Assembly: GCA_964035575.1 (NCBI GenBank)
Contig: OZ037835.1
Coordinates: 1,550,001 to 1,614,000, forward strand
DNA length: 64,000 nt
DNA from: Rhynchopus sp. YZ270_cl-10
Lineage: Eukaryota
Reading direction: 5' to 3'
Positions 32,363 to 64,000 of the stretch are shown in pieces. Position numbers and translations under genes: made by a program. How positions within the stretch are numbered: position 1 is the stretch's first letter; each line of letters begins with the position of its first letter. Below the pieces are notes generated by a model. The model was not told the DNA's origin. It made no database searches and saw only the letters and a list, made by a program, of their open reading frames with translations.

Positions 32363-33391
32363 GACATGCTCACGTACCTCGTGACTTCGACTCTGAGCAG
32401 CGTGTGTTAGCTGCGCTGGAGGTGGTGGTGTTTAGTGCATGGTAGTTTTCAAAACAGATTTTATTCTCCACACCGTCACACCTTCAGGAAAAATATCATT
32501 TTCTTCATTTTCTTCCAGACACACTGGGTTTTTTGTTTCTTCGCTAATTATTTTTATCAAAGTTGACTTTTTTTTTGGGGCGTGCCACACCAGAGTCGCT
32601 AGTTATTTTTATCAAGAATGTTTTCCCCCCACCTTCGCCAGAAACGTTTTGATGTCATGACTGTTACTTCTTGTACTGAGGAAAGAGTTTCGCTTACTAG
32701 AGAGAGCCCAGTGCAGGAAGGGCTTGACCGTGGAAAAAGCAGGAGAGAAAGGGTTTGTTTGGTTCTTGATGTACGTTACCATCCCAGGTCATCACGTTTT
32801 TGATTGGGGCGAAATGAACGGACCTTTTCGTGCGGAGCGCGAATGACCTTTGTTGTCACCGTTTTGGACATACCTTTATATCTTCACAGTTTTGGGGGAA
32901 AAGGGTTCTCTCATGACACGGAATCCCTGCTCCCCCCACCAGGTGGACTCTTTCTGGAAAAGGGCAACTCAGAAAGAGGTACAACGGGAGAGAGTGCTAA
33001 CTCCCCTTTCACTCCCGACAGTGGTAGTTGATACTCCCCCTTTTTGTAACTCCGGAATAAAGTTGACCTTTTCCAGAAAGAGTCCACCGTGCATGAAGCT
33101 CGGTTGTTTCTGTGAGGTAGGGTTCGTTCCCCGTGTGGGAAACACGGTCTGCTCAGCACTCAGAAGCTACCTACCATAAAGGCCGTTAGCCCGGTCTTGT
33201 TCGGTCTTGAAAGCCGTGTGCCGCAAAATAGCGTGCCGACACTCCACTGTGGGGTGTTCGTGTGTAGAGAAATGATGTCTTCCAGCAGTGTGCAGCTCGA
33301 GGAGTTGTTGCGCTGCTCCGCTGTTGCTTGTGTGTTCTTCGTCCTCTCTCGTTGCAACCTCCTCACAGAAGCAGCAATACACAAACACACA

Positions 33392-34648: not shown

Positions 34649-34810
34649 GACATGCTCACGTACCTCGTGACTTGGACTCTCAGATGCGTGTGTTAGCTGC
34701 ACTAGGTGGTGGTGTTTCAGTTGCATGGTAGTTTTATCAAAACAGATTTTATTCTCCACACCGTAGCACATTCAGGAAAAGTATCATTTCTCTATTTATT
34801 TTGTACGAGT

Positions 34811-35394
34811 ATGCAATACGTCTGGAAATGAAAGACGCGTTCTTCGGTTGCCATGAGTCTTACCGTTTCCCCCCTTTGTGCTCCACCTCTCCCCCGTACT
34901 TCAGGACGCGGGTTTTCGGGAAAGGATGGATGCGATCAACAATATTGGCCCACGTATTAGTGTATGAAGGGTGTTTGCACTTCGGGGCAGGAAACAGCGA
35001 CCAATTAGTCAGACCAAGCAGAAGGTGGCCTCTGGCCGTGCCACCTTTCCTTGACGAGTGGTTTGTGTACCGCCCCCTTTCATCCAGAGGGATGGCATCG
35101 TACAGTGGGTCAGTTGAAGGTGCCCTACGTCAAGAACAATTCCTTTGTTGCTATCATTGTTATGATAGTGTTGTGTTCTTTTGTGTGTTTTGGGGCTTTC
35201 TTTTTGTGTGTCATTTGGGTTTGTCAGAGCACGCTCTGGTAGGGTGATTTGTTATACAACAAACTAACCCCTCCGTTCATGATTTGTTTTGTTGATCGCA
35301 TCAGTCTTCATTGTGGAGAAGGTGGAGCAAAAAAAGGGAAAGCAGTAAGACTCATGAGATCCGAACGTGGATTTCGTTTTCAGATGTATTGCAT
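34811..35394. mobile_element. Old TIR element with diverged ~80-bp inverted ends in the ankyrin spacer
   Basis: atgcaatacgtctg...tgctccacctctcc vs ggagaaggtggagca...cagatgtattgcat. Confidence 0.5.
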
Positions 35395-35834
35395 TGCCAC
35401 GATCAAGAAGCGATCTTGGTCGAACCCCCACTGAGGTCTTGTTCGGTTTTGAAAGCCGTGTTCCGCAAAATAGATGTATTTTGAACAAGATAAAACAAAA
35501 GTCTTGCGTTTCTTTTATCGAACAGATTTTATTCTCACCCCATTCCCAAAACGTAAACACCACTTTCATTTTCATCACAAAAAAAAGATTTCTTTCTTCT
35601 TTCTTCTTCTACACACACTGGTTTTTGTGTTTCTCATTTTTATCAAAAAAGCTTTCAAGTTTCGAGTGCGAAACATTTCCCGATGTATTGCACGGGAAAC
35701 AATATTACAAACAGATGCAGGGTGGTTCCGTGCTTATCACAGAACCTGGCACGCGCTGCTCCGCTGTTGCATGTGTGTTCTTCGTCCTCTCTCGTTGCAA
35801 CCTCCTCACAGAAGCAGCAACACACAAACACACA

Positions 35835-37499
35835 ATGTCGAAGAAGCGGCACGCAGACAGCACGCAGGACGAGAACCCACCAAAGAGAAGACAGCTTTCT
35901 GCAGACCAGGTCTTGGTGGAGGCTATCAGAACTGTCAATACGACTGCTGTGCGGGCGGTCCTTAAGAAAAGGCCACACAGAAAAACAATGGCCTTCGATG
36001 TTGTGCGAGAGGCATGCAGAAGGAACGACGATGAAAGCCTCATACTGCTGCTTCCGTATGTTGAGACAACGCAGATGGACTTTGGGATCCTGCTGAGTGA
36101 GTGTGTCCACGCAGACCACGTTGCGTGCACGGAGGTCCTCTTGCAGCATTGGAAGTCAGTCTGCAAGAACACAGCGTTTGTCCCGCACGGCAAAGATGTG
36201 GACATGTTTGATTGTCCGGCCATGTGGTCAGACCCTGCAGTGTGTCGTGTCTTGATTGATGCAGGGGCAGACTTGCATATAAAGAACGAGTATAAACGTT
36301 CACCTCTGCACTATGCTTGCATTTCAGGAGCACTTGACGTTGTGAAGATGTTGGTGGTTGCAGCAGGTGCGGGAACACAGAAGTTCAGAGTCGCAGATGA
36401 CGAAGGGGAGACATGTTTTTCCATTGCGGCAAAATTTGGAAACATTGAGACTGTGCGCTATCTTGTGGGCTTGCCAGATGTCGATGTGAATTACGCGGAT
36501 GAGATCGACTACACTGCATTGCACGCAGCTGTGGGTCATGAGGCAACAGACTCGGTGCAGGTGCTGATTGATGCAGGTGCAGACTTTAACATACTGAACA
36601 ACGACGGACATTCGCTTCTGCACGATGCTTGTGAATTTGGAGCACTCGAAATTGTGAAGATATTGGTCAGTGTGGGTGCGGGAGTGCGTGTCACAAATGG
36701 CGAAAGGCACACGTGTCTTCACGCTGCGGCAGAAGCTGGACACACCGAGATTGTGCGCTATCTTGTGAGCTTGCCAGATGTCGATGTGAATCAAGAAACT
36801 GTAGATGTAGATAGCTACACTGCGTTGCACCGTGCGGTGATACATGTAGAACCAGACGTGGTGCAGGTGCTGATTGATGCAGGTGCACACATCGACACAC
36901 AGAACAACGTCGGGCGTTCACCCCTGCACTCTGCTTGCGCTTCAGGACTACTTGACGTTGTGAAGATGTTGGTCAGAGCAGGTGCGAAAGTGCGTGCCAC
37001 AGATGACGAAGGATGCACGTGTCTTATCCGTGCGGCACGTCGTGGACACATCGAGACTGTGCGCTATCTTGTGGGCTTGCCAGAGGTTGATGTGAATCAG
37101 GGAGATGCTCACAATCACACTGCGTTGCACCGTGCGGCGCTGAATGCGAACACAGACGTAGTGCAGGTGCAGGTGCAGACATCAACACACAGAACAGCGG
37201 AGGGACGTTCGCCTCTGCACTCTGCTTGCGCTTCGGGAACACTTGACGTTGTGAAGATGTTGGTCAGAGCAGGTGCGGGAGTGCGTGCCACAGATGACGA
37301 AGGGGACACGTGTCTTATCCTTGCAGCATTTTTTGGACACACCGAGACTGTGCGCTATCTTGTGAGCTTGCCAGAGGTGGAACTGAATCACAGAGACACT
37401 GCAACGAACTACACTGCGTTACAGTATGCGGTGCAGGAAGATCACAAAGACGTTGCACAGGTGTTGATGGATGCACTGTATGTTGTGTTTGGAGTTTGA
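35835..37499 (+). CDS. Ankyrin-repeat protein, array copy 4 (554 aa)
   Basis: Paralog; compensating 10-bp and 2-bp deletions at ~37165-37200 keep the frame open. Confidence 0.88.
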   Translation: MSKKRHADSTQDENPPKRRQLSADQVLVEAIRTVNTTAVRAVLKKRPHRKTMAFDVVREACRRNDDESLILLLPYVETTQMDFGILLSECVHADHVACTEVLLQHWKSVCKNTAFVPHGKDVDMFDCPAMWSDPAVCRVLIDAGADLHIKNEYKRSPLHYACISGALDVVKMLVVAAGAGTQKFRVADDEGETCFSIAAKFGNIETVRYLVGLPDVDVNYADEIDYTALHAAVGHEATDSVQVLIDAGADFNILNNDGHSLLHDACEFGALEIVKILVSVGAGVRVTNGERHTCLHAAAEAGHTEIVRYLVSLPDVDVNQETVDVDSYTALHRAVIHVEPDVVQVLIDAGAHIDTQNNVGRSPLHSACASGLLDVVKMLVRAGAKVRATDDEGCTCLIRAARRGHIETVRYLVGLPEVDVNQGDAHNHTALHRAALNANTDVVQVQVQTSTHRTAEGRSPLHSACASGTLDVVKMLVRAGAGVRATDDEGDTCLILAAFFGHTETVRYLVSLPEVELNHRDTATNYTALQYAVQEDHKDVAQVLMDALYVVFGV

Positions 37500-44781: not shown

Positions 44782-46440
44782 ATGGAAGTAGTTATCAAGG
44801 ACTGTGCAGACAACTCGTACGTGATTGAGGTGGGTGTGGATGACACAACGGAGACGATGCGGCAGAAGGTGGCGTCTGCAGTGGGGTTGGCTGAGGACAG
44901 CTTCCTCATGGGCTTCGGAGGGAAGGAGGAAGGAGACGACATCACGCAGCTGAGTGCTGGAGACACAATCATCCTGACGAAAACTATGAAGTTCGTGGCT
45001 AGAGCAGCACTTCATGCGTTGGGTGAGGACATCACTGCAGAGAAGCTGAAGACGGTGAGGGATCCTGAGGTTGCGTGTTTGCTTCTGCAGGCGGAGGTTG
45101 CGACTGTCATTCCGAATCAGTTCTTGGCACGCACATCGTTAACAGCACTTGATCTGAGTGCTGTGTCCTGTGTGACGGAAATTGGTGATGAGTTTCTTCG
45201 CAACTGCACAACGTTGACAAGCGTCGACCTGTCTGGGTTGACACATCTCACGCGGATTGGTACCCACTTTCTTGCCGAATGCATCAGACTCACAACAGTA
45301 AACTTGCCTCCACTCAGCAATGTTACTCACATTGATAACTACTTTCTTTCCTACTGCAACAGCCTCAAAGTAGTGCATTTATCAGCTCTCAGCAATGTTA
45401 CTCACATTGGTGGAGACTTTCTCTACAACTGCATCAGCCTCACAGCAGTGGACTTATCCCCGCTCAGCAATGTTACACACATTAGTACAAGCTTTCTTCA
45501 CAACTGCAGCAGCCTCACCTCAGTAGACTTATCGCCACTCAGCAATGTTGCTCACATTAGCAGATGCTTTCTTTACAACTGCAACAGCCTCACAGCAGTA
45601 GACTTATCACCACTTCGCAATGTTGCACACATTAGTGAATACTTTCTAAACTGCAGGAGCCTCACCTCAGTAGACTTATCGCCACTTCGCAATGTTACTC
45701 ACATTAGTGAATACTTTCTTTTCAAGTGCACCAGCCTCACAGCAGTGCACTTATCGCTTCGCAATGTTACAGACATCGGTTTAGCCTTTATGGAGAACTG
45801 CAGAAGCCTCACCTCAGTAGATTTATCATCCCTTTGCAATGTTACTCACATTAGTGCATGCTTTCTTCAGAACTGCAGCAGCCTCACAGCAGTGGACTTA
45901 TCACCACTTCGCAATATTACTCACATTGATTCCTGGTTTCTTGCCGACTGCAGCAGCCTCACAGCAGTAGACTTGTCACCACTTGGCAATGTTACTGACA
46001 TTGGCAGAGGCTTTCTCCACAAGTGCAGCAGCCTCACAGAACTAGACCTGTCACCGCTCAGCAGAGTTACGGACTTTGGTCCGCCTACTTTTCACAGCTA
46101 CACTTCGTTGAGGAGCATCCACCTTGGCGGCTGCAGCAGTGCTGTGTCCAGTGTAATATGTCGATGTGGCGAGCTGAAGGAGTATGTGGTTGACGCACCT
46201 CCACCTCCGACACGCGGCGGAGACAAGACGAGAGTTCCACTTCTCAGCAATGTTACGCACATGGGTGAGCTTACGGGCATCCGCGACACTTCATTGAAGA
46301 GCATCCATCTTGGTGGCTGCAGCAGTGTTGTGTCCAGTCGAGTACGTGAAGGCGAGCTGAAGGAGTATGTGGTTGACGCACCTCCGACACGTGGCAGAGG
46401 CAAGACACAAGCAGCCTTGCCTTGCTGCAGTGTTTCGTAA
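44782..46440 (+). CDS. Ubiquitin-like domain + BspA/TpLRR-type leucine-rich repeat protein with C-terminal CaaX (intact copy 1, 552 aa)
   Basis: N-terminus MEVVIKD..YVIEV..DDTTETMRQKV...L.FGGK...LSAGDTIIL follows the ubiquitin pattern; ~25-aa repeats LTSVDLSPL.NVTHI...FL.NC.S; ends CCSVS*. Confidence 0.88.
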   Translation: MEVVIKDCADNSYVIEVGVDDTTETMRQKVASAVGLAEDSFLMGFGGKEEGDDITQLSAGDTIILTKTMKFVARAALHALGEDITAEKLKTVRDPEVACLLLQAEVATVIPNQFLARTSLTALDLSAVSCVTEIGDEFLRNCTTLTSVDLSGLTHLTRIGTHFLAECIRLTTVNLPPLSNVTHIDNYFLSYCNSLKVVHLSALSNVTHIGGDFLYNCISLTAVDLSPLSNVTHISTSFLHNCSSLTSVDLSPLSNVAHISRCFLYNCNSLTAVDLSPLRNVAHISEYFLNCRSLTSVDLSPLRNVTHISEYFLFKCTSLTAVHLSLRNVTDIGLAFMENCRSLTSVDLSSLCNVTHISACFLQNCSSLTAVDLSPLRNITHIDSWFLADCSSLTAVDLSPLGNVTDIGRGFLHKCSSLTELDLSPLSRVTDFGPPTFHSYTSLRSIHLGGCSSAVSSVICRCGELKEYVVDAPPPPTRGGDKTRVPLLSNVTHMGELTGIRDTSLKSIHLGGCSSVVSSRVREGELKEYVVDAPPTRGRGKTQAALPCCSVS

Positions 46441-47075
46441 AGAGCGACAGAAGAAGCTAGGCAAGGAACGTAGAGCAGCTCCGCTGTGACAGCTGCTTGT
46501 CCCATTCTGCGACGTCGGTGTGAGTCTTAGAAGACAGTGTCTGAATGAGAGTCAGTGAGGCACTCAGACAACACAGTTGCTTTCTCGTTGTGTAACTGTG
46601 CGATACCAGCGAAGCAAACACCGTGCAAAACGATCTCGGAGTGGACGTGCATTCGCTCAAGATACTGCGCAGGTCGTCATTCTCCAGTACCCGTGATCCA
46701 TTTCGAGTCACAAAGACATCCACACTTAGACAACGAGGCTTTCAAGTACCAAACAAATGATATCTACCGCCAGCTGTTTGTTGTCTCTTGCGGGATGGTG
46801 ACCCGCTTGTGACGCCGCCTGGGATACCCCTACACCTGCACGCATCAAACCTAAATGACAAGGCAGAGCAGTGGCGGGCTGCGTTTCTCTGTGCAGTCAC
46901 TCACTTGGGATATGTCGAATCTGGCTACGGGCATGAAGCCTCCGTTTTCCTGCAGGTCTTTACACAAAAGGACGTTACCATTAAGGACGCAGAGGTGTTC
47001 ATGTGGCGCAGACCTGTTCTGAGAGAAGACACTAACGAAACACTCAAAGAAGAAATGGAGTCGGGGAAGAAAAAA

Positions 47076-47538
47076 GCCGGACCCCGAGGTGAAGCTGGCT
47101 TTGCGTATGATGTAGTTCGGTTTGGCGCGTGCGTCCGACGTGGAGAAGCTGAAGGTGGAGGAGGTGAAGGTGACGGGGGACGACAACGTGGCGGTGACGT
47201 GGAGGCCGACCCGTTCAACCTTGGGCGAGCCACCGGCATGCACCTGCCGCAAACGCTGCGCGCACAGCTGGGGAAACAGCAGAAGAAGGAGAAAGGGAAG
47301 CCGCTGCCGGGGGCAACATACCCAAGGTTGGCCCGAGCCCTGAAGCGAGTGGACTCGACGCTGACGCCACACTCACTGCGCAGGGGGGGGCATCCACCAC
47401 CTGGTGCACGAGGGGGTAGATCTGGCGCAGATCCAGAAGGTGTCCCGCCACGAGACGCTGAAAGGGTTGTGCCACTACGCGCCTTTGGCGGAGTCTGCAG
47501 CGGTCGCGGAGACGGCAAGGGTGTCGATGCGGCTGTGA
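47076..47538 (+). pseudogene. Degenerate tyrosine recombinase fragment (DIRS/VIPER/TATE-type element relic)
   Basis: Across frames: LRMM*FGLARASDV..L, TPHSLRRGG and IQKVSRHETLKGLCHY give the R..HxxR..H..Y motif order; one stop and two frameshifts; absent from the paralogous flank at ~60270. Confidence 0.7.
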
Positions 47539-49127
47539 CGCTGCAGAAGTTGGTGGTACCGGGGTTGAGAATCCCTTCACGCTGGCTGCGATGCAGTGAG
47601 GTAGAACAGTGCTCTTGTGTTTCTTCTGTTATCGGGTGTTGGTCTACGTTGGGTCGCGAGCACCCAGTGTTTTGTCTGAGAGGCAGTGTGACAGAGCGTT
47701 TTTTCGTGCGTTGTTCTGGTATCGGGTTGATCTGCTTTAGGTCGAGCACCCAGTTCTCGTGTGTTTCTTCTGTTTTCGGGTTTGGTCTACCTTGGGTCGC
47801 GAGCACCCTGTACACTGTCTCAGAGGCAGTGAGGTAGAAAGATTTCTGTGTTTTTTTGTTTTTTTCAGTATTTCCTTTTTAGTTTGCTTTTTATTCTATT
47901 TTTCTTTCTGTGTTTGCTTGGGTTTTCTATATGATACACAAACAGGATGGTATTTGTTTGGATTGATAGCAATTATTGCACGGAATACTTTACGTATACA
48001 CGGCAGCCATCAAGACCAAGACTCTTTAGGTTACTCTTCCTCCTGGTGCACAGACAGGACATATCCTTACTACTGTATGATTCTTAGGACTGAAACAGGG
48101 TTAATGTTAGAAACCAATCTACTGAAGTTTCAATTTGTGCATGAAGCATTTATTTTTCTTTTTCTACGTTTTGCAAAACATTCCAAAAAAAAGCAAGGCT
48201 ACACTTTTCGTACCCTCTTTGCCTTCTTTTCGTTTCGTTAAGAAAAAAAAGTATATGAAATGATGTTTTTTGGTTTCTGGTCTACTTTGGGTCACGAGCA
48301 CCCTGTACACTGCCTCAGAGGCAGTGAGGTAGAAAGTTTTCTGGGTTTTAGCTCTCTGGCTATACGAACGCAGGCCGGGAGTGCCTGGGGTTTGAGAAAG
48401 TCGATCCGCGAGTGATTGAAACAGGGACAAGAACGGTGCATCGAAATATCGGTGGAGTCTGCTCGTGTGTGAGTGGTACTGACGATTGCCGAAACATCGG
48501 CGGACATGTACATTGGTGTGAGTCGCGTGTGTTTGTGTGTTATTGACAGAGTGTCACTGATAGTGCCGAAATGTCGGCAGGGACCGAACGCTCGGTCGTG
48601 CACGCCTAAGGGGAAAGGCCGCGCTGGTGGGTAGTCGACCGTAACGGCTGAAAGAAAGGGGGGGGAATGAAATCATCAGCAAAGCTGAGGTGGCCAAGAT
48701 AGCGATCTTGTTTTTGGGTGTGTGCGTTTCACCACAACCTCTCCCTTTTTGTCTTTACTGTTTTTATTGCTTTATTGTTTGTGGGGGTGGGGGAAAAACA
48801 TAAAAAGGAAAAGCAGGAGTGCGGTTTCAATTTTTCCATGTAATGATAAAAAGGAAATTGAACACCGTACCCTACTCCCTTCTGTTCCCCCTACTCTGGG
48901 GCGGGTTCGATCAGAGCCACATTTCACTGACAGGTCGAGGTGTGTGTTTTACCGCAACCTCTTTTAGTCGCAGTTGTTTTCATTGCTTTATTGTTTGCGG
49001 GGGTGACGGAAAAACATAAAAAGGAAAAGTAGGAAGAGTGCGGTTTCAATTTCTTCACCATGTTCACCCACTGCAGCCCCAACTCACAACCCCACCACAC
49101 AACAGAGCAACACAAAGGGAAGACAAA

Positions 49128-49337
49128 ATGGAAGTAGTTATCAAGGACTGTGCAGACAACTCGTACGTGATTGAGGTGGGTGTGGATGACACAACGGAGA
49201 CGATGCGGCAGAAGGTGGCGTCTGCAGTGGGGTTGGCTGAGGACAGCTTCCACATGGGCTTCGGAGGGAAGGAGGAAGGAGACGACATCACGCAGCTGAG
49301 TGCTGGAGACGCAATCATCCTGACGAAAACTAAGAAG
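49128..49337 (+). pseudogene. Ubl-LRR gene copy 2, 5' part (Ubl domain), interrupted by the retrotransposon and in frame with its ORF1
   Basis: Near-identical to 44782-44991. Confidence 0.88.
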
Positions 49338-49420
49338 AGGGTGAGAGACGACGCGCCTCCACGGGGTACCCTCGGGAGACGCCCCCCTCCTCTATGGGGG
49401 GAGGCGTCTGCTAAAGCGCG
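49337..49420 (+). ncRNA. HDV-like self-cleaving ribozyme (predicted) at the element 5' end
   Basis: P1 GAGGGU/ACCCUC, P2 CG(A)CGC/GCGCG, P3 GCC/GGU, L3 UCCACGG, P1.1 CC/GG, P4 AGACGCC/GGCGUCU, J4/2 GCUAAA with C at 49411. Confidence 0.7.
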
Positions 49421-49457
49421 GGGAAGAAGGACGGCGGCGGGGGGCAGCCTCGACGCG

Positions 49458-52400
49458 ATGTGCGGAGGGGCAGGTGGCCAAGGGGGGGAAAAGGGGGTGC
49501 TGCAGAAATACCTGAGGGGCTTCGACATGCGGGTAAAGGACGCAGGGGGGAACGGAGACTGCCAATTTAAGGCGGTCTCGATGGCTGTGCACGGAGACGC
49601 CACGGCGCACGGGGGGCTGAGGGAGATGGCGGTGGGGGTGTTGGAACGGGAAGCGGAGAATTGGGGTGAGCACGTTGACGGAGGACCGTCCGCCTACCGG
49701 AGGTACTGCTCGGCGATGGCGAAGCAGGGGTCCTGGGGGGACCACCTGACCCTGAAGGCGTTGGCGGAGGTGCTGATGCGGGAGGTGTATGCCTTCTCGG
49801 TGAAGGATGGGGAGGTGCGTGTGCTGAAGGTGCACCCGAAGGAGAAGGGCAGCGGTGCAGCGGTGACGGTGGCGTACGTGGACGCATGCCACTACCTGTG
49901 CGTCCTCCCCACGAGCACGGGGGAAGAAGCCGCCGAAGACCGGGCCCGCAAGGCGATGGTGGGGGGTGCGTTGGAGGTGACGGAGAAGCCGTACACCGTG
50001 CCGCAACCGCGAAACGATGCGAAGGCGGGGACGGAGGGGGGCTTCACCCAGGGGGGAGGGAAAAAGAAGACGACGGCAGCGCTGACATTGCTGCAATCGG
50101 AGTGGGTGGGATCGACGCTTGTGCCGTGGGGGGAGGTGGTGGATAAGTCGGAGGGGGTCTGTCTTGTGCCGCAGGGTAGAGAGGTAGAGGCAGAGGGGAA
50201 GATCGCGCGCACGCCGGGCGTGACGTGGGTGGGTTTCGGGTCCTTCCCGAAGTCTGGTGGGGAGAAGATGCAGTGCCCCATGGGTAAGCAGGGGAATGGG
50301 GGGAAGGTGAACGGGGCGGCGAGCACGGCCGTGTACGTGGTGGGGAGGCTGAGGCCGGGGAGAGGAAACGGGGGGAAGAAGGCGTCGGCGGCCGTCCAAC
50401 TGGTGACGGTGTTTGTGACGATGAGGCCGACAGCAGGACAAGCGCAGGACCTGGTGTCAGCGGGGAAGAAGATGCGTGCGGAGGTGGGGTGCAACCTCAA
50501 CCGCCCACCATTGTGGCAGGAGGGTAAGCTGATCTCCTCGGTGGCCGACGTAAGGGAGGACGTAGCAGAGCGCTGCCTGAAGCAGAGTGGGAAGGGGGGT
50601 GTCTTCTTCCGGATGAGACGCGAGCAGTCGGAGCATCTGCCTGTCGTGTGGTTGGTGGACGGGGTGGGGCTAGAAGAGGCCCAGGGGCTGGCGACCCGGA
50701 TGGGGGGATGGGGAGTGGCGGCGAGGTACGAGTCCCTGGGGATACGGGTGAAGAAGGAGGATCAGGAGCGTGCAAATGCGGCACTCATGCAGGAGGGAAA
50801 GGCGCCCGAAGGTCGATACGTGGTGTCCGGTTTCCCGTCGGGTACGTCCGGTGAAGCGGTGATGGAGTCGCTGGCAGGCGCAGGGTGGACGGTGACGCCG
50901 CTGCGGAGGCTGGAGGGATGGCGTTGGGTGGTGGGAGCGAAGCTGGATCCGCCGACGTGGGCCATGGACATGGAGGGGAACGGGAAGGGGCTGCTGATCC
51001 GCAAGGATGGGCATAAGGAGGGCGGGGGTAGGGCAACGGCTCCGGGTCCGGGGGCGAAACAGAAGGCCAAGGTACATACCGCACATGCGTCTGGTCCGAC
51101 ATTTGGTGCCCGGACGGCGCCGGCGGCGACAGCGCAGCACAACCGTGGCACTGGGCCCGACTACGGTTGGGTGTCCTGGGCTGCGCACGCACGCCAAGCA
51201 GCAACAGCGCCAGCTGCAGCGAAGCCACCCACTACCACATCAAGGACACCTCCACCAACAACAACAACAACAACGAAGCAACGGACGCCGAAGGGTCAAC
51301 CCCCAATGACGTCGCCCGCCCCATCACCTGAGGACGCAGGCGAGAAGTGGGCGGAGTTGGAGCGCCGGATGGAGGAGAGGTTGGACCGCCTGGTGGGCGA
51401 GCGCCTCCAGACCCTGCTGCAGGAGACGGTGGCGTCGCTGACGGCCCAGTTGCGGGAAGAACGGGTGGAGCAACGGAAGAGCAGCAGGTGTGGATGGCGG
51501 CCATGCTGGAGCAAGTGGGCAAGCTCTGTTCCATGCCGAAGGAGGCCACGGCTGCTGCGAGAGAGGACGCCGCTGCTGCTGCTGCAGCCCTGAGGCAGGA
51601 GGAGGAGGAGGCGAAGGCCGCCGCCGCTGCAGCCCTGAGGCAGCGTGAGGAGGAGGCGAAGGCCGCTGCTGCTGCAGTCCTCAAGCAGCGTGAGGAAGAG
51701 GTGAAGGCCGCCGCTGCTGCAGCCCTGAGGCAGCGTGAGGAGGAGGCGAAGGCCGCCGCTGCTGCAGTCCTCAAGCAGCGTGAGGAGGAGGTGAAGGCCG
51801 CTGCTGCTGCAGCCCTGAGGCAGGAGGAGGAGGTCGCCGCTGCTGCAGCCCTCAAGCAGCGCGAGGAGGAGGTGAAGGCCGCTGCTGCTGCAGCCCTGAG
51901 GCAGCGTGAGGAGGAGGTGAAGGCCGCCGCTGCTGCAGTCCTCAAGCAGCGTGAGGAGGAGGTGAAGGCCGCTGCTGCTGCAGCCCTGAGGCAGGAGGAG
52001 GAGGTCGCCGCTGCTGCAGCCCTCAAGCAGCGCGAGGAGGAGGTGAAGGCCGCTGCTGCTGCAGCCCTCAAGCAGCGCGAGGAGGAGGAGAAGGCCGCCG
52101 CTGCTGCAGTCCTCAAGCAGCGTGAGGAAGCCGACGCTGCTGCTGCAATCCTCTGGCAGCAGGAGGAGGAAGCCGCCGCCGCCGCTGCTGCAGTTGCTGC
52201 TGAGAACGCCAGGCAGCGCGAGGGGGAGGCTGCTGCTACTACGGCCCCGACTGTCGCAGTGCCCACTGCAGCGCCCACAACACCCGAGATGCAGATGGCG
52301 GATGAATTGTTGGACACACTCCCAGACGGGATTGCCGAGGACGTGATGTCACCGGAGCCCGCAACGATGGCAGGTAAGCGGATACGTGCGGGAAATGGGT

Positions 52401-53212
52401 CCAGTGAGGTTGAGGAGCTGAGCCCGCGCCGCAGGAGGAGGAGGGCTGACACCATCCGTGGAAAGCCGGGGGTAGTCGTAGAAGTCGCCGAAGCACGGAA
52501 CCGGTCGCGGTCAGCACCACCCAGGGACACATCGCCGACTGCGGACGTTGCTGGCGCCGGTGATGTGGAGGTAGTGGTGGCGTCCCCGAAGAAGAAGAAG
52601 AAACGCAGGAACATTGTGGCCGCTGAGAAACGACGGGAGGCACTACGGGCAGCACAGGAAGAAGCGGCGGCAAAGAAGGAGAGACGTGCTGCAGCAGTGC
52701 AGGCACAACGTGAGCAGGAGCAAGGGGAGAACGCCGGCGCAGGGACCCCCGCACCCACGACACCAGACGCCGAGGCACGGATGGACGACGCCGACATGGC
52801 ACTGCCGGTGCAGACATCGCCAGACTGTGCGGCTGTCGAGGAGGACGCGGAGACCTCGCCAGCTCCCAGAGTGCCGGTGGCGCCACCTGCCGTGACCCTG
52901 GCGGGCAAGCGGGAAGACCGCAGTGAGTCCGGTGAGACGGTGGCGCTGCTGAGTCCGCCGCGCAGGATGCGGACGGAAGTCCCCGCAAAAGAGCAGGCGG
53001 AGGGGAACGAGAAGAACGAGGAGTCGTACGGGAACGCAGTGCTGGAGGCTGGCGACTCCATGGAGTACTGCGAGGAGGGAGGCAACGGCGCAGCCATCCC
53101 GGTGACTGTCGTGAAGGTAGCGGGGGACGTCATCGAGATCGCGTTTCGTCCCGTCCAGGGACTAGACAACAGGTTGGTAGGCCGCAACACCCTGCGCGAT
53201 GTGGGGCGGTGA
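49458..53212 (+). CDS. Retrotransposon ORF1: OTU-like cysteine protease, central domain, Ala/Glu-rich coiled-coil repeats (one frameshift at ~51478)
   Basis: GNGDCQFKAVS (Cys codon 49560), WGDHLTLKALA and CHY (His codon 49890); ORFs 49038-51593 and 51347-53212 join by a 1-nt shift; repeats AAAAALRQREEEVK. Confidence 0.75.
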
Positions 53213-53224
53213 CGGTGTGGTGCG

Positions 53225-56200
53225 GTGGAAGGGTACGGCACAGGATTGGCTTCTTCGTGCGTAGTTGGAGAACGAGACGTTTTTGTGAAAACTGTCTCCC
53301 CAACAAGGGGTCAGCATCGTTTGCGCTCTGCGGGCTGTATGCTGTCGGGGACAAGGGGTAAGGGTAGAACGCGAAGGGGGGTGGGGCGAGGGGTCGGACA
53401 CAGGGTGCGTCGAGGGAGGCGACGAGGGGCGTTTTTGGGCAGGGGGTCACTGCTGACATGTGGAGACGTGGAGGAGCATCCGGGTCCGTCGACCATGTCG
53501 CTTGGCACGGCAAACGTGACGTCTCTGAGGGCACACCCTGCGGTGGGGGAGTGGGATGTGGACGTTTGTGCTCTGCAGGAGGTGCGCCTCACAGAAGAAG
53601 AGATGAAGGGGGCAGCAAACGACGTGAAGGGGTATGGTGCCAAGCAGCTTCTCTTTGGTGCCCCTTGCAGACGAAGCCAGGGATCAGACCCTCTGCGCAC
53701 GCGCACGCAGAATGGTGGAGTTGCGATCATGACGTGCGCTGACATACCGACCAGAGCAGTACCGCCACAATGTGCCCAACAAGCGTGGAACGAATGCCGC
53801 TTTACGCATGCGCAGGTGGCATATGGGAGCGGGGGACGTAACATCTCTGTGTTCTCGTTTTATGGTGTGTGTGCCGACAGCGACCGCACGGAGCAACTCC
53901 TGACAGGCATCTTTGAAGAAGCAGCCAGCCTTGGGGACATACCGGTGTTCATTGCCGGAGACTTCAACGTAGAGGCTAACGAAAGTCTAGCCATTCGAGC
54001 GGCCATCTCCTCCGGCAAATGGGTTGATGCGGCAGATACCTACGCACAGCAGTTGGGTAAGGCAGCAGAGAACACATGCTATACCTCCACATCGTCTGGC
54101 AGACGTATCGACTTGGTGCTGGCGAACCACGTGGCTGCCCCTGCGATCTCCAAAGTGGTGGTCTGGAAAGAGAGCTGCCTCCCGGTACACAGACCGGTGG
54201 TGTTGACGTTAGACCTGACGCGATACGAGCAGAAGGCACCGCAGGCACGCCCTCCCCTTTCTTTGATCGGCGACGACTGGACGAAATGGCCGGCGAAGAA
54301 GGAGAAGGAGCTTGCAGCGAAGGTGATGCAGGAGAACGCTGCCCCTGAAGCCGACCTGACGAAGATGTCGGTTGAAGATCGCTGGGCACGCTTCTGCAAG
54401 ATTGCGGAGGACTACCTGCTGAAGAGAGGTGCTGCAGACTCAGACCCGAAGCAACAACGCCACAGGGGGAGAGGGGAGGTGCAACCCGACGTTCTCCGAC
54501 ATCGGACGGCCCGCATGGACTGCGACACGCCGGATGCTGTGAACCTGGAGACGGCTCAACTGCAGAAGACATGTCGTCAGATGGAGCAGCTCATTGGTGA
54601 TCGGAGGAAGCGCTTCGGTCAGCCATCTGCAGAATCGTTGAACGAACGGCAGCTGTGGGCGAAAATCCGCAAGAAGAAGCATCTACTGAAGAGTGACACC
54701 TGGGACCTCGACCTTCCTGGGATAGAGGCGTTGTGTGGGCTCCTTGGCTGCTTGAAGAAGAGGGGTTTTGTCCTGCTGGAGCAACGGCGTCGGGCCCGCA
54801 TCAAGGAATGGCGCCGCACAATGAAAGAACACATGAAGGAGAACCCAGCGAAGGTGTTCTCGTTCCTGCGGAAGGCTACGTCGTCACACACCACGTTCCT
54901 GAAACGGGAGGACGGCACGGTTACAGCTAACCTCCAGGAGATGGATGAACTGCTCATGGATGACCGTGCTTGGGGTGGGGTGTTCCGGATGTACGACGAT
55001 TCCGAAGAACCTGCGTGGACGACGTTCTTTGATAGGTTCAAGGAACACATTCCTGAAGGGACCCCTTGTGTATGCGAACCCCTGACCGCCGACGACCTCC
55101 GTACGACCATCGGCAAGATGAAGCGGAAAAAGGCGGCAGGCCTCGATGGGTGGAGGGTGGAGGAGCTGAAGGAACTGCCTTTGACACTGCTGGAGGAACT
55201 CGCGCGCTGCCTGAACCTGATCGAGGATACTGGGAACTGGCCCAGGGTGATTGCGAGGGCGTTGGTGGTGCTCATCCCCAAAGGAGAAGGCGAGGAGCCC
55301 CTGAAGCAGCGACCCATTACCATCACCAGTGTGATGTACAGGTTATGGGCGGCGACTCGACTCCGCAAAGTGGCGACGTGGCAGGAATCCTGGATTCACG
55401 AGCGGCAACACGGCTTCCGGAACAAACACGGAACCGAAGACCTGCTGTGGTTTCTCTGTGCGAAGATGGAGGAGGCTCTGACACACCTATCTATCTAGCC
55501 TCCTTCGACTATCAGAAGTGCTTTGACCGTGTTCCCCAAGAGATCATGTTCCAGCTCGTCGAACGGTTGGGTCTTCCCGACAACATGATGCGCCCCATCC
55601 GGGGTATATACAAGAAGCTGGGGAGGCGTTTCAAACTTCCGGCAGGTCTTGGCAAAGAATGGTTTGCGACGAATGGTATCCTCCAAGGATGCCCACTGAG
55701 CGTAATCTTCCTGAATGCGCTGGTGGCGGTGTGGATGAACGGGGTGGAGAAGGAAACGGGCACGCAGGGGCTGGCGTATGCTGACGACACCAACCTCCTG
55801 ACGAAGACCCTCGACCAGCTGCGAGCGGGTGTCGCCTTCACCGGACACTTTGCAGACTTGACGGGACAACGCGTCCACGCGGGGAAGAGCACGTGGCAGA
55901 GCAACCGTCCTGATGAAGAGGAAACTGTGCAGATGAACGGCGCGGATCTTACTCGCGTCGAGAAGTCGGAGTGCCTGGGGGCGACGGTGCAGGCCCGACA
56001 GGCTGGGACGCCCACGCTCCCGACGAAGCTGGAAGACACCATCGACGCATGCGGACCGCTAGCAGGTAAGGTGGGATGCCTCCCGCTGACTCAAGGTGAG
56101 AAAGCAGGCATCATGCAGGCTGCAGTGATGTCGAAATCTGTGTACGGTATCACGGTGCAGGACCCACCTGGGAAATACGTGAACAGTCTTGCAACTGCAG

Positions 56201-58212
56201 TGGAGAAAGGGGTCCACGGCGTGAACAAGATGAACCGAAGAAGCGTACCGGTCATGCTGAATGTCTTCGAGAAAGGCCATCTGCTCGACCCCTCGGTGGC
56301 ATTCGACTACAGAAGGATCATGACGTGGGCGGCGATGATACGCAAATCGGATGAGATCTGTTTGCTGGTCGAAAAGTGCAGGTCACGTGCGAAAGCGAAG
56401 CAGGCGAAGACTGGAGGACCCATCGGGTTGATTGCGCGAGCCCTCAGCCGCCTTGCGTGGTCATGGATAGACACGACAAAAGTGAAAACGCACGATGGGA
56501 GCATCGTTGATGTGAAGACAGTAAGCTTGGGTAGACTGGGCCACGTTGTGCGAGAACGGATGTTCTTCATTCGACTCTCCCGTACGAAGACGACTGCGAA
56601 GGCCAATGGCAAAGGCAGAGCTAACCTGAAGGGTATTGAAGCGGGGGTGGATAAGGAGAAAACCCTTGCTCTCACCCGAAGCAAAACTTTGACGGATTAC
56701 GAGGCGGGGACGCTACGACACATTGTAGCTGACGGTGCGATAACGGGGGTGCGACTTGCGAGAGCGCGCATACGGGACTCGGCCATCTGCGTGCACTGCG
56801 AAGCGGGGGTGGACGAAAATCACAAACACTTGTGGTGGGAATGTGAAGCATGGAGTAGCATTCGTGCGGAGTACCCCTTGCTGTTGGACATTGACAGATC
56901 GACCTGGCCAAACTGTCTCGCTATCTGCGGCATGTGCACACCGGACACACCTTTGGAATGCGCCCGTGTTGCAGACCTGCAGAAGATGATGGTGCGCATC
57001 CTCATCGCACGCTCCAAGTGGAGCAGACCGGAAGCGACGAACCCGCGACTGCAAGAAGACCGATACCCGTGGACGTGGGCGCCGGAGTTGGACACGACGA
57101 CGCAACACGCGAACAGTTTGGTGGACTACACCCCCCTGAAAAGGAGGTGGCCGTATGGACGTGCGCTGCTGCTGGCGTTTGCCTCCTGGCTGGGTGGTTT
57201 ACAATGGAGCGACGAAGCTGGACGTGAAGTCTCCCACATGGAGCTGCTCATCGACTTCGAGGTTGCCACAGGGATGGACATCCGACCTGGGGACAAGACC
57301 GGCAGAATAGCGCCGAAGCTGAAGCAGCCGAGGGATGGGACTGGGGAAGAAGTCAACAATGGGGGGGAAGACGACGGGAGTGAGGAAGACGACGATGATG
57401 ACGACGTGGTGCCAGTAGCGCTGGCCCACAGAGAAATGGCGAAGACGACCACCTTTGGGCATATGTTGGCTTCACTCAGAACCTTTTCGGAGAGCTCTCT
57501 CCATCCGGGGAAGGTGAAGGTAACGCATGTTCTCGCTTCGTTTGGGGCGAACGCCATCACAGGCATCGACCGCCGTCCTATCTTTGCCGGCGGAGAAGAA
57601 ACGTTGAAGGCATTGCGTGCGCTATACGATGCTGGTGTGGCGTACCGTCTGCAACGCAGCTCCGAAGGCATGTCTGAGGCGGAGCTCCGTGGTGGCGATA
57701 GAGCGAGAGGTACATGGATGGGGGAGTATTCTGCTGAGACGGCGTACCCCTCCACAGAAGTTAGGGGCAGGAGGGCACTACCATTCATCCAGCGGGCTGA
57801 ACAGGAGACATCTGCGCATGCTCGCTACCGGCACCATGAGCACGTGCGTCCAGGGGACGCACCCGTGAAGGCACCTGAAGGAGCGGTTCCGATCTTCCAG
57901 TTTGCGATATGTGTGCTGCACCGGAAGACGAAGTGTGATGCCTGCTCGAAGAACGCCCAGGCAGACCTGATGCATTGCTGCTTTGCGCACCACTCCAACG
58001 ACGACGGGTTACCGATCCGACACGAAGCATGCACTAAGCATAGACTCTCGAGGTGCGGGAACTGTGTGCAAGAGAAGAGTACGCTGGATCACTGCTGCCG
58101 CCGCCACCACGACACCTCGAAGGGGCGACAGACGACGCTGGGAGGCTTCTTCAAGAAGAAGCAGACGAAGCAGAAGGATGGGCACAGCAGGGGCGGTGAT
58201 GGACTTATGTAA
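53225..58212 (+). CDS. Retrotransposon pol: 2A peptide, AP endonuclease, reverse transcriptase, CCHC knuckle, C-terminal Cys/His repeats (frameshift at ~55485)
   Basis: APE: TANVTSL, ALQEVR, AGDFN, RIDLVL, HRPV. RT: QHGFR, FDYQKCFDRV, GILQGCPLS, YADD (55777-55788). C-x2-C-x9-H-x4-C at 56788-56844. Confidence 0.9.
53438..53488 (+). other. 2A/StopGo-like peptide GRGSLLTCGDVEEHPGP
   Basis: 16 of 17 residues match T2A (EGRGSLLTCGDVEENPGP); lies directly before the APE domain. Confidence 0.8.
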
Positions 58213-58258
58213 CATCACCCCCACGATGTATTGTATCACCTATCTCGGATAGGGGTGC

Positions 58259-59641
58259 ATGCATCGAAAACGGGCCCCCACCCTGACGAAAACTAAGAAG
58301 TTCGAGGCCAGAGCAGCACTTCATGCGTTGGGTGAGGACATAACTGCAGAGAGGCTGGTGACTGTGGAGGATCCTGAGGTTGCGTGTTTGCTTCTGCAGG
58401 CGGAGGTTGCGACTGTCATTCCGAATCAGTTCTTGGCACGCACATCGTTAACAGCACTTGATCTGAGTGCTGTGTCCTGTGTGACGGAAATTGGTGATGA
58501 GTTTCTTCAGCGCTGCACATCGTTGACAAGCCTCGACCTGTCTGGGTTGACACGTCTCACGCGGATTGGTACCAACTTTCTTGCCAACTGCACCAGCCTC
58601 ACAACAGTGGACTTACCACCACTCAGCAATGTTACACACATTAGTACAGGCTTTCTTCACAACTGCAGCAGCCTCACCTCCGTAGACTTATCACCACTTC
58701 GCAATGTTACTCACATTAGTGAATACTTTCTAAACTGCAGCAGCCTCACCTCAGTAGATTTATCACCACTTCGCAATGTTACTCACATTAGTGAATACTT
58801 TCTTTACAACTGCAGCAGCCTCACAGAAGTGGACTTATCGCCACTTCGCAATGTTACAGACATTGGCGCAGCCTTTATGGAGAACTGCAGAAGCCTCACC
58901 CTAGTAGATTTATCATCCCTTTGCAATGTTACTCACATTAGTACATGCTTTCTTCACAAGTGCACCAGCCTCACAGAAGTGGATTTATCACCACTTCGCA
59001 ATGTTACTCACATTGATCCCTGGTTTCTTAGCTACTGTAGCAGCCTCACAGCAGTGCACTTGTCACCACTTGGCAATGTTACTCACATTGGCAGGGGCAT
59101 TCTTTACAACTGCAGCAGCCTCACCTCCGTAGACTTATCACCACTTCGCAATGTTACAGACATTGGTGCAGCCTTTATGGAGAACTGCAGCAGCCTCACC
59201 TCAGTAGATTTATCCCTTTGCAATGTTACTCACATTAGTACAAGCTTTCTTCACAAGTGCACCAGCCTCACAGAAGTGGACTTATCACCACTTTGCAATG
59301 TTACTCACATTGATCCCTGGTTTCTTAGCTACTGTAGCAGCCTCACAGCAGTAGACTTGTCACCACTTGGCAATGTTACACACATTGGCAGGGGCTTTTT
59401 TCACAAGTGCAGCAGCCTCACAGAACTAGACCTGTCACCGCTCAGCAGAGTTACGCACTTTGGTAAGCTTCCTGCTGACAGCTACACTTCGTTGAGGAGC
59501 ATCCACCTTGGCGGCTGCAGCAGTGCTGTGTCCAGCGTAATATGTCGATGTGGCGAGCTGAAGGAGTATGTGGTTGACGCACCTCCGACACGTGGCAGAG
59601 GCAAGACGAAAGCAGCCTTGACTCGCTGCAGTGTTTCGTAA
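58259..59641 (+). CDS. Ubl-LRR gene copy 2, 3' part (LRR + CaaX), open from an element-derived ATG
   Basis: Open 460-aa frame, LRR repeats, ends RCSVS*. Confidence 0.75.
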   Translation: MHRKRAPTLTKTKKFEARAALHALGEDITAERLVTVEDPEVACLLLQAEVATVIPNQFLARTSLTALDLSAVSCVTEIGDEFLQRCTSLTSLDLSGLTRLTRIGTNFLANCTSLTTVDLPPLSNVTHISTGFLHNCSSLTSVDLSPLRNVTHISEYFLNCSSLTSVDLSPLRNVTHISEYFLYNCSSLTEVDLSPLRNVTDIGAAFMENCRSLTLVDLSSLCNVTHISTCFLHKCTSLTEVDLSPLRNVTHIDPWFLSYCSSLTAVHLSPLGNVTHIGRGILYNCSSLTSVDLSPLRNVTDIGAAFMENCSSLTSVDLSLCNVTHISTSFLHKCTSLTEVDLSPLCNVTHIDPWFLSYCSSLTAVDLSPLGNVTHIGRGFFHKCSSLTELDLSPLSRVTHFGKLPADSYTSLRSIHLGGCSSAVSSVICRCGELKEYVVDAPPTRGRGKTKAALTRCSVS

Positions 59642-61092: not shown

Positions 61093-61302
61093 ATGGAAGT
61101 AGTTATCAAGGACTGTGCAGACAACTCGTACGTGATTGAGGTGGGTGTGGATGACACAACGGAGACGATGCGGCAGAAGGTGGCGTCTGCAGTGGGGTTG
61201 GCTGAGGACAGCTTCCACATGGGCTTCGGAGGGAAGGAGGAAGGAGACGACATTACGCAGCTAAGTGCTGGAGACACAATCATCCTGACGAAAAGTAAGA
61301 AG
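61093..61302 (+). pseudogene. Ubl-LRR gene copy 3, 5' part (Ubl domain), interrupted
   Basis: Near-identical to 44782-44991. Confidence 0.85.
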
Positions 61303-62239
61303 GAAGAAGACAACAATGGGGGGAAGACGACGGGAGTGGGGAAGACGACGATGATGACGACGTGGTGCCAGTAGCGCTGGCCCACAGAGAAATGGCGAAG
61401 ACGACCACCTTTGGGCATATGTTGGCTTCACTCAGAACCTTTTCGGAGAGCTCTCTCCATCCGGGGAAGGTGAAGGTAACGCATGTTCTCGCTTCGTTTG
61501 GGGCGAACGCCATCACAGGCATCGACCGCCGTCCTATCTTTGCCGGCGGAGAAGAAACGTTGAAGGCATTGCGTGCGCTATACGATGCTGGTGTGGCGTA
61601 CCGTCTGCAACGCAGCTCCGAAGGCATGTCTGAGGTGGAGCTCCGTGGTGGCGATAGAGCGAGAGGTACATGGATGGGGGAGTATTCTGCTGAGACGGCG
61701 TACCCCTCCACAGAAGTTAGGGGCAGGAGGGCACTACCATTCATCCAACGGGCTGAACAGGAGACATCTGCGCATGCTCGCTACCGGCACCATGAGCACG
61801 TGCATCCAGGGACGCACCCGTGAAGGCACCTGAAGGAGCGGTTCCGATCTTCCAGTTTGCGATATGTGTGCTGCACCGGAAGACGAAGTGTGATGCCTGC
61901 TCGAAGAACGCCCAGGCAGACCTGATGCATTGCTGCTTTGCGCACCACTCCAACGACGACGGGTTACCGATCCGACACGAAGCATGCACTAAGCATAGAC
62001 TCTCGAGGTGCGGGAACTGTGTACAAGAGAAGAGTACGCTGGAGCACTGCTGCCGCCGCCACCACGACACCTCGAAGGGGCGACAGACGACGCTGGGAGG
62101 CTTCTTCAAGAAGACGAAGCAGACGAAGCAGAAGGATGGGCACAGCAGGGGCGGTGATGGACTTATGTAACATCACCCCCACGATGTATTGTATCACCTA
62201 TCTCGGATAGGGGTGCATGCATCGAAAACGGGCCCCCAC
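61303..62239 (+). mobile_element. 5'-truncated copy (937 bp) of the same retrotransposon at the same target site
   Basis: Matches 57346-58281; TSD at 61284-61302 (one mismatch) and 62240-62258. Confidence 0.92.
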
Positions 62240-63323
62240 CCTGACGAAAACTAAGAAGTTCGAGGCCAGAGCAGCACTTCATGCGTTGGGTGAGCGGAAC
62301 ATCACTGCAGAGAGGCTGGTGACTGTGGAGGATCCTGAGGTTGCGTGTTTGCTTCTGCAGGCGGAGGTTGCGACTGTCATTCCGAATCAGTTCTTCGCGC
62401 GCACATCCTTCACAGCACTTGATCTGAGTGCTGTGTCCTGTGTGACGGAAATTGGTGATGAGTTTCTTAGGCGCTGCACAAGGTTGACAAGCCTCGACCT
62501 GTCTGGGTTGACACGTCTCACGCGGATTGGTACCAACTTTCTTGCCAACTGCACCAGCCTCACAACAGTGGACTTACCACCACTCAGCAATGTTACACAC
62601 ATTAGTACAGGCTTTCTTCACAACTGCAGCAGCCTCACCTCCGTAGACTTATCACCACTTCGCAATGTTGCACACATTAGGGAATACTTTCTAAACTGCA
62701 GCAGCCTCACCTCAGTAGACTTATCGCCACTTCGCAATGTTACTCACATTAGTGAATACTTTCTTTACAACTGCAGCAGCCTCACCTCAGTAGACTTATC
62801 ACCACTTCGCAATGTTACAGACATTGGTGCAGCCTTTATGGAGAACTGCAGAAGCCTCACCTCAGTAGATTTATCACCACTCAGCAATGTTACTCACATT
62901 AGTACATGCTTTCTTCACAAGTGCACCAGCCTCACAGAAGTGGATTTATCACCACTTTGCAATGTTACTCACATTGATCCCTGGTTTCTTAGCTACTGTA
63001 GCAGCCTCACAGCAGTAGACTTGTCACCACTTGGCAATGTTACTCACATTGGCAGGGGCTTTCTTCACAAGTGCAGCAGCCTCACAGAACTAGAACTGTC
63101 ACCGCTCAGCAGAGTTACGCACTTTGGTAAGCTTCCTGCTGACAGCTACACTTCGTTGAGGAGAATCCACCTTGGCGGCTGCAGCAGTGCTGTGTCCACT
63201 CGAATATGTCGATGTGGCGAGCTGAAGGAGTCTGTGGTTGATGCACCTCCACCTCCACCTCCACCTCCACCTCCACCTCCACCTCCACCTCCACCTCCAC
63301 CTCCACCTCCACCTCCACCTCCA

Positions 63324-63362
<39 letters not shown>

Positions 63363-63383
63363 GGCTTAGAGTTTTTGTTGTGA
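62217..63383 (+). CDS. Ubl-LRR gene copy 3, 3' part (LRR); C-terminus replaced by (CCACCT)n and poly-T
   Basis: Open frame with LRR repeats; CaaX end lost at the 63245-63358 repeat. Confidence 0.65.
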
Positions 63384-63975
63384 GGGTGGTGGGAAGGAAA
63401 CGCGATGGGGAAATAAAGCACAGTGGATAACCCTTTCCAGATGAAAGTGAGGGTAAGAGGTAGAAAATGACTAAGAGGCACTGGGGCGACTACAGACATT
63501 ATCATCCACTGAAAAGAAACTGAAAAGAAAAACAAATGGAACAACAATAACACAAACGGGGCAGAAGGAACACCGGCACCACAGGGTGTGTGAGACACTG
63601 TGAAATTCGCTGAAATCGCAGGGCTACTCCAGAAAACTGTGAGGGGGGTGGGAAATTGTGGGAAACAAACAAAGGACAAGAGAAATTGTTTTCTGTACAT
63701 CTAATCATTCACAAAAAATTTATTTACATTCTACCTTCTAGAAAAAACTGTACAGCACAAAAAAAAAAAAAAAAAAAAAAAAAAAAACGGAAAAGTAAAA
63801 AGTAAAACCAGGAGATGGCGAGCTGAAGGAGTCTGTGGTTGATGCACCTCCACCTCCACCTCCACCTCCACCTCCACCTCCACCTCCACCTCCACCTCCA
63901 CCTCCACCTCCACCTCCACCTCCACCTCCACCTCCACCTCCACCTCCACCTCCACCTCCACCTCCACCTCCACCT
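63245..63975. repeat. Two (CCACCT)n tracts (63245-63326, 63845-63975) bracketing a ~490-bp insert with poly-T and poly-A runs
   Basis: ggcgagctgaaggagtctgtggttgatgcacct precedes both tracts. Confidence 0.8.
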
Positions 63976-64000
63976 CCTCCCCTACCCGAAATCAGACAAC

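Follow-up and report, generated by a model that had tools for sequence, protein, structure and literature searches.

An OTU-Bearing LINE Between the Ubiquitin-like and Leucine-Rich Repeat Parts of a Rhynchopus Host Gene, with a Predicted Ribozyme at the Junction

The Interrupted Host Gene and Its Retrotransposon

The window analyzed here, a stretch of 64,000 nucleotides from Rhynchopus sp. YZ270_cl-10 (contig OZ037835.1, positions 1,550,001 to 1,614,000), holds members of a host gene family that join a ubiquitin-like (Ubl) domain to a BspA-type leucine-rich repeat (LRR) part. One member is interrupted at the end of its Ubl domain by an 8.9 kb retrotransposon without long terminal repeats (non-LTR; a long interspersed nuclear element, LINE) that encodes an APE endonuclease and a reverse transcriptase (RT). 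A target-site duplication (TSD) of 18–19 bp bounds the element; the 18 bp version, with G49337 as the first element base, also fits a truncated copy in a third paralog. The first open reading frame (ORF1) is headed by an OTU domain, and a ribozyme resembling that of hepatitis delta virus (HDV) is predicted at the junction with the host gene. An earlier note, made from the sequence alone, had proposed that the element borrows host translation and clips itself free of the Ubl domain, or that it could counter defense based on ubiquitin; in our view, the interest of the locus lies in the anatomy of the element (a site-specific LINE, an OTU-headed ORF1, and a predicted junction ribozyme) rather than in self-clipping.

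As the earlier note had stated, the DNA is open from the host ATG at 49128 without a stop through the Ubl domain, the TSD, and the leader into the OTU motifs GNGDCQF, WGDH, and CHY, and the element has its own in-frame ATG at 49458. The fused frame of the window runs for 821 codons and ends at 51593 owing to a frameshift near 51480. This frameshift is missing from three other copies of the element (P0002, P0005, and P0008) and is therefore a mutation or read error of the window copy. Intact ORF1 copies, including the Ubl part, reach 1425 aa (P0005) and 1306 aa (P0008), and the length of ORF1 varies between copies.

A second frameshift, near 55480, parts the APE half of ORF2 from the RT half, and Cys/His clusters lie in the latter at 56788 and 57919–58065. 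A Pfam scan gave no match in ORF1 after the OTU domain (49926–51026) or in the ORF2 tail, and no RNase H match at E 0.1 in the element. TGA followed by CGG is a read-through context, and no stable hairpin was found downstream of the ORF1 stop (z 0.15); read-through of this TGA, combined with the StopGo motif, could yield ORF2. The 13 Ala-rich repeats of ORF1 at 51569–52194 look coiled-coil-like by eye.

Table 1. Coordinates of the interrupted gene, the element, its relatives in the window, and the predicted ribozyme.
Feature	Position	Strand	Remarks
Uninterrupted Ubl-LRR paralog	44782..46440	+	Empty target site 44973–44991
Host Ubl domain	49128..49337	+	Codons 1–70 of the interrupted Ubl-LRR gene
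Left TSD	49319..49337	+	18 bp if G49337 is the first element base, otherwise 19 bp
Leader	TSD to ATG 49458	+	120 nt
ORF1 from the element's ATG	49458..53212	+	OTU, unannotated middle domain, Ala/Glu/Gln-rich repeats
OTU core	49548..49895	+	Cys codon 49560, His codon 49890; Pfam, sequence matches to solved relatives, model
ORF1 stop TGA, then CGG	53210..53215	+	Same frame stays open into ORF2, no further stop
2A-like StopGo motif	53438..53488	+	His replaces the consensus Asn; directly before APE; consensus from PMC3708506
APE endonuclease	53510..54196	+	PF03372, E 1.9e-10; motif positions
Second half of ORF2: RT	55072..58212	+	PF00078, E 5.4e-13; YADD at 55777
3′ untranslated region	58213..58281	+	69 nt, without poly(A)
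Right TSD and rest of the host BspA-type LRR part	58282..59641	+	TSD at 58282–58300
5′-truncated element copy	61302..62239	+	Last 0.94 kb, 98.7% identical; same site, third paralog (ATG 61093)
Predicted HDV-like ribozyme	49337..49420	+	Descriptor search; predicted cut 5′ of G49337
P1	49337–42/49368–73	+	6 bp
P2	49349–54/49416–20	+	3 bp + bulge + 2 bp
P3	49355–57/49365–67	+	3 bp
L3	49358–64	+	7 nt
P1.1	49359–60/49374–75	+	2 bp
P4	49377–49409	+	Long
J4/2	49410–15	+	Candidate catalytic C49411 (by position)

The OTU Domain and the Adjoining Ubl Domain

The OTU fold that the earlier note had read from motifs is well supported. Pfam PF02338 matched with E 6.3e-10, above the cut-off, and the sequence search of solved relatives gave four matches at E up to 0.01 (OTUD5, OTUD1, and OTUD3). 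The AlphaFold model (69 aligned sequences) has a predicted local distance difference test score (pLDDT) of 93.5 and was aligned by Foldseek to OTUD5 and OTUD1 with template modeling (TM) scores of 0.78–0.79. A chance motif was ruled out, since the OTU match is far beyond chance.

The motifs lie at 49548–49568 (GNGDCQF), 49734–49745 (WGDH), and 49887–49895 (CHY). The Cys and His of the claimed catalytic pair are thus present, but the order is G-N-G-D-C-Q-F and not the G-D-G-N-C that had been cited, and Leu stands at the second position after the His (His+2). The His is kept in 9/9 aligned element-type OTUs; the Cys has no independent count, as the rows were cut by the Cys motif. A predicted complex between the OTU domain and the Ubl of the host scored 0.00, which gives no verdict and is not used as evidence. 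The domain likely acts as a deubiquitinase, and cleavage of the host Ubl is probably not its role.

Sequence by itself gives only a weak Ubl assignment (PF00240, E 0.019, under the cut-off), with residues 1–53 aligning one-to-one with ubiquitin, and the model (pLDDT 69) matches ubiquitin with a TM of 0.78. The host Ubl part is 98.6% identical to that of the empty paralog at 44782. The last strand of the model comprises residues 62–67 and the element joins after residue 70, which would leave the fold whole and agrees with the earlier claim that the element inserted exactly where the fold stops.

Insertions at One Codon of the Host Family

The host family comprises 166 proteins found with the first 90 residues as the query, and the matches listed are all from ENA. 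Two database proteins, P0005 and P0008, carry the same ORF1 in frame at the same residue of other Ubl paralogs, and the frame is accordingly kept at two further full-length insertions. In pairwise comparisons of the window copy, P0005, and P0008, the host columns in common are 40/72, 49/71, and 40/73 (55–69%), while the element parts differ at 0–1/671 aa. Insertions at one codon number four (the full-length and truncated ones in the window, P0005, and P0008), and Lys70 is kept in 95/102 aligned paralogs. The combination of divergent hosts with near-identical element parts at one residue means that the insertions are recent, independent, and site-specific.

The host frame of the third paralog ends after 94 codons on entering the truncated copy. 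The truncated copy could alternatively be a deleted duplicate, although the host tail there differs by 3.9%, versus 1.3% for the element part. The LRR end of this paralog is broken at 63215–63990 by long repeats of CCACCT type and by runs of poly(T) and poly(A), which may be assembly noise. A fourth ORF1, P0002, begins at the element's Met with a 5′ flank that is not in the record, and it may be the window locus in another assembly.

Over 48900–50300, the four contig sets searched cover the host Ubl far more than the element, and the empty sites diverge at 49337; one contig spans 49308–50029. Contig depth is not copy number, as contigs drop variants, and no count is drawn from it. An assembly chimera at the junction was ruled out by the TSD on either side and by the same junction in two other paralogs.

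In protein P0202, a close Ubl paralog is followed, from about the same junction on, by repeats of another protein that are not LRRs, and the Ubl junction may thus also serve as a point of domain shuffling.

Predicted Ribozyme at the Junction

The fold beginning at G49337 has P1, P3, and P1.1 in the nested double-pseudoknot order of published criteria (PMC3774820, PMC3185411). A strict descriptor gave a single match on the two strands of the window (128 kb), with its +1 at 49337, and had no match in shuffled sequences (0/2000 of 2 kb; 0/20,000 local), while a loose descriptor matched 53/20,000 local shuffles. The HDV criterion for P2 is at least 5 bp with mismatches tolerated, and here it has 3 bp, a bulge, and 2 bp; in R2 ribozymes, P1 has 6–7 bp and P2 is often imperfect (PMC3774820). 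If active, the predicted ribozyme would cut the RNA within the final codon of the host part, which separates the Ubl from the OTU.

A sister family of elements, 56% identical, offers independent support at the protein level. Read in frame, it shares 21/28 residues with the element across the fold, against 1/12 in the ungapped stretch that comes next. Its protein forces ten base changes, of which five are unpaired, three lie in P4 and are still pairable, and two lie in distal P2, where one breaks a pair; none of the ten falls in P1, P3, P1.1, L3, or J4/2, and C49411 is compatible with the sister family. Random peptides did equally well in this test in 558/20,000 cases. The DNA pattern of the ribozyme core had one sole match in metagenomes (L001:1790–1810), which lies in a bacterial-looking, unrelated gene and was rejected as chance.

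The In-Frame Fusion

The element family is in frame with the host in 3/3 copies whose 5′ flank is known. Because both the site and the element's 5′ end are fixed, one frame holds for all copies, and we rejected the notion that these are three independent tests of frame selection: they amount to one draw. At local composition, an in-frame open leader of 40 codons is expected by chance in about 16% of cases (0.48 × 1/3). The in-frame fusion is likely a side effect of insertion at a fixed site.

The claim of self-clipping after the Ubl finds no support in the residues at the junction. OTUs need a di-Gly tail, and the Ubl is followed by TKK/RVRDD without Gly-Gly, the next Gly-Gly being 35 residues further on. 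With the last strand setting the register, we take Arg71-Val72 to occupy the place of ubiquitin Gly75-Gly76. Nor is Gly-Gly found after the Ubl in any of 120 host paralogs (0/120, with about 15 rows not covering the region), and the OTU is also present in elements without a Ubl, as described below.

Relatives of the Element and Age of the OTU

The closest named RT relative, 42% identical, comes from Diplonema papillatum, a kinship that points to a second diplonemid, likely a marine protist, as the probable host. In an RT tree of 12 rows, which holds no ingi or L1Tc references, the element pairs with D. papillatum P0278 (90/90, unstarred). The sister family has the OTU as well; one of its flanks (33 residues) is not Ubl, and the other, of 5 residues, is too short to judge. 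Four times in D. papillatum, an accession with OTU-ORF1 neighbors one with 2A-APE-RT, and in another two families a single ORF combines OTU, APE, and RT. When the Ubl profile was run against 80 element-derived proteins, 39 of them with the OTU Cys motif, the two matches were P0005 and P0008. The presence of the OTU in the sister family and in D. papillatum elements without a Ubl suggests that the OTU is older than the link to the Ubl target.

Locus searches with the element proteins gave no match in viral contigs and none in prokaryote genomes. Two related OTU-ORF1 proteins, P0085 and P0328, have an extra N-terminal region of 200–260 residues that appears RNase-H-like by eye. In P0330, a D. 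papillatum model annotated as patched-like, an OTU-ORF1 starts at about residue 1240; the model has probably fused a host gene with an element.

Proposed Mechanism and Alternatives

We think it probable that the element is co-transcribed with its host gene, that the ribozyme frees the element RNA at the junction, and that ORF1 is translated from its own ATG without a cap, the fusion being a by-product. The element would ride along passively when the cluster of host genes is transcribed, and the redundant host family would offer a safe target; D. papillatum genes appear to be co-transcribed (polycistronic) and trans-spliced (PMC10161547). Self-cleavage 5′ of G49337 is predicted to strand the Ubl on a 5′ fragment without a stop, and a cut at this place would make the in-frame fusion likely a by-product. 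Translation would begin at ATG 49458 in a cap-independent manner, as has been proposed for R2 and L1Tc (PMC6765202, PMC3185411). The OTU, an old part of the lineage, likely shields ORF1/ORF2 particles from degradation or edits ubiquitin marks at the cut site. More speculatively, ORF2 might be reached by UGA read-through or re-initiation and freed by the 2A-like motif.

A number of observations weigh against this reading. The shuffle counts are flattering, because the fold was read by eye first and the descriptor written after the sequence had been seen, and the loose descriptor matches at six places in the window. The Rfam scan, run up to E 10, matched no member of the HDV family, and a plain fold of 49330–49430 is not above shuffles in stability (z −1.05). 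P2 is weak (3 + 2 bp) and loses one pair in the sister family, and covariation is inferred from the protein of that family only. Trypanosomes have some Pr77 sequences that fold correctly to all appearances yet fail to cleave (PMC4035085). Of the three frames, that of ORF1 alone is open through the leader, the other two frames carrying stops, and the leader of the sister family is open in its ORF1 frame too; both facts fit translation from upstream. The third residue of the OTU triad is usually Asp or Asn at His+2, though not universally; here it is Leu, and 1/9 aligned rows has Asp. Finally, most gene models begin at the element's own Met, and a Ubl-less protein is uninformative on the DNA upstream of it.

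In an alternative that we consider unlikely, some of the co-transcript escapes cutting and, still with the cap and ATG of the host, gives an uncut Ubl-OTU-ORF1 protein, with the cut RNA serving as the template. It is just as unlikely, in our estimate, that the Ubl-OTU-ORF1 protein of the uncut message is tethered to the proteasome or p97, that the target was chosen for its Ubl module, and that the insertion also disables one member of the Ubl-LRR receptors, which may act against parasites. Ubp6/USP14 and Otu1/YOD1 are parallels in which a Ubl tethers a deubiquitinase to the proteasome or p97. In favor of the uncut protein, all three copies with a known flank are in frame, the Ubl fold is left whole at the junction, and the stops in the other two leader frames and the open leader of the sister family point in the same direction. 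However, the fixed site explains the single frame, for which the prior chance was about 16%, P0002 starts with the Met of the element (the flank not being in the record), the one judgeable flank of the sister family is not Ubl, and the host frame stops at once in the truncated copy.

Slightly less probable is a leader that acts as a conserved promoter or protein-binding structure, left over from a ribozyme that has lost its cleavage, with expression from the element's own start and an incidental fusion. The weak P2 and the missing Rfam match would suit such a relic, L1Tc uses its Pr77 as an internal promoter as well (PMC1874656), and inactive look-alikes exist (PMC4035085), but the core is intact at every position and the sister family shows no change in it, and the near-identity of the copies implies that the family was recently active. 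We regard it as very improbable that the element borrows host translation and that its OTU cuts itself off the Ubl. The in-frame fusion in three copies, the OTU fold with its Cys and His, and a junction placed where the Ubl fold ends are what such a scheme would lead one to see, but they are offset by a Ubl end without Gly-Gly, an OTU that predates the Ubl target, and a ribozyme fold lying on the junction itself.

Comparison with Known Systems

The L1Tc/ingi elements resemble ours as euglenozoan APE-RT elements whose HDV-like ribozyme (in ours a predicted one) begins at the first base and frees them from polycistronic RNA (PMC3185411), and in having a 2A-like motif just before the APE (PMC3708506). 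Compared with the 2A consensus GD(V/I)ExNPGP, the element has His for Asn, while a D. papillatum relative with the same upstream tract keeps the Asn. The ingi clade has no ORF1 (PMC3708506), in contrast to the 1.25-kaa OTU-ORF1 found here; L1Tc carries RNase H after its RT, and its TSD measures 12 bp (PMC6765202), whereas the element has no Pfam RNase H and a TSD of 18–19 bp. We do not file the element in the Ingi clade, as it has an ORF1 and no detected RNase H.

The RHS genes of Trypanosoma are similarly a large protein-coding family in which insertions share a single site within the 5′ coding part (PMC7563717). The RHS insertions are described as producing nonsense or frameshift pseudogenes (PMC7563717), whereas here the frame continues into ORF1 and the target is the junction of Ubl and LRR. 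Like the element, R2 is site-specific; it is co-transcribed with a repeated host gene and freed by a 5′ HDV-like ribozyme, which may also start translation (PMC3774820, PMC6765202), much as is proposed here. Unlike the element, R2 has 28S rDNA as its target, a single ORF, a C-terminal endonuclease, and no protease.

Cysteine proteases of ubiquitin or SUMO type are known on other mobile elements (PMC2836005, PMC4640811): OTU occurs in the DNA transposons Ginger1 and Helitron (PMC2836005), and Ulp1 in NeSL and Utopia-1_TSP, LINEs with a restriction-like endonuclease (PMC4640811). In contrast to Ginger1, Helitron, NeSL, and Utopia, the OTU described here heads ORF1 of an APE-type LINE. A further likeness is with elements of D. 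papillatum, where KAJ9444445.1 and KAJ9444446.1, adjacent by their accession numbers, make up an OTU-ORF1 followed by 2A-APE-RT, and KAJ9440002.1 has OTU-APE-RT in one ORF; the RTs of these D. papillatum elements are 42% and 35% identical to that of the element. They differ in having no Ubl fused and are annotated as 'Pol polyprotein' or hypothetical. A literature search, with Repbase and most subscription journals outside its reach, found no description of an OTU in a LINE or other non-LTR element; the accessible part of the classification review PMC5718144 contains no mention of OTU, and a term search of the seven D. papillatum supplement files gave one OTU row, which is unrelated.

These results add a site-specific LINE that targets a domain junction within a protein-coding family, and OTU domains with the Cys/His pair kept run through several diplonemid-type LINE families. 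Why transposons carry ubiquitin or SUMO proteases, a question raised in PMC2836005, becomes testable in an element with a single known target, and an APE element with an 18–19 bp target is relevant to targeted insertion. If the junction-spanning protein is made, the element would be one that completes its own protein with a host domain.

Other Features of the Window

A degenerate, frameshifted stretch with the motif HSLRRGG lies at 46930–47600, behind the uninterrupted paralog, and is missing behind the next one. The motif recalls a tyrosine recombinase of DIRS/TATE-type elements; a Pfam scan of one frame of 47001–47600 gave no match. Farther upstream, four ankyrin-repeat genes form a tandem array at 28335–37499, followed at 38393 by a SARAF-like gene, and an ORF of C2H2-finger type is located at 4510.

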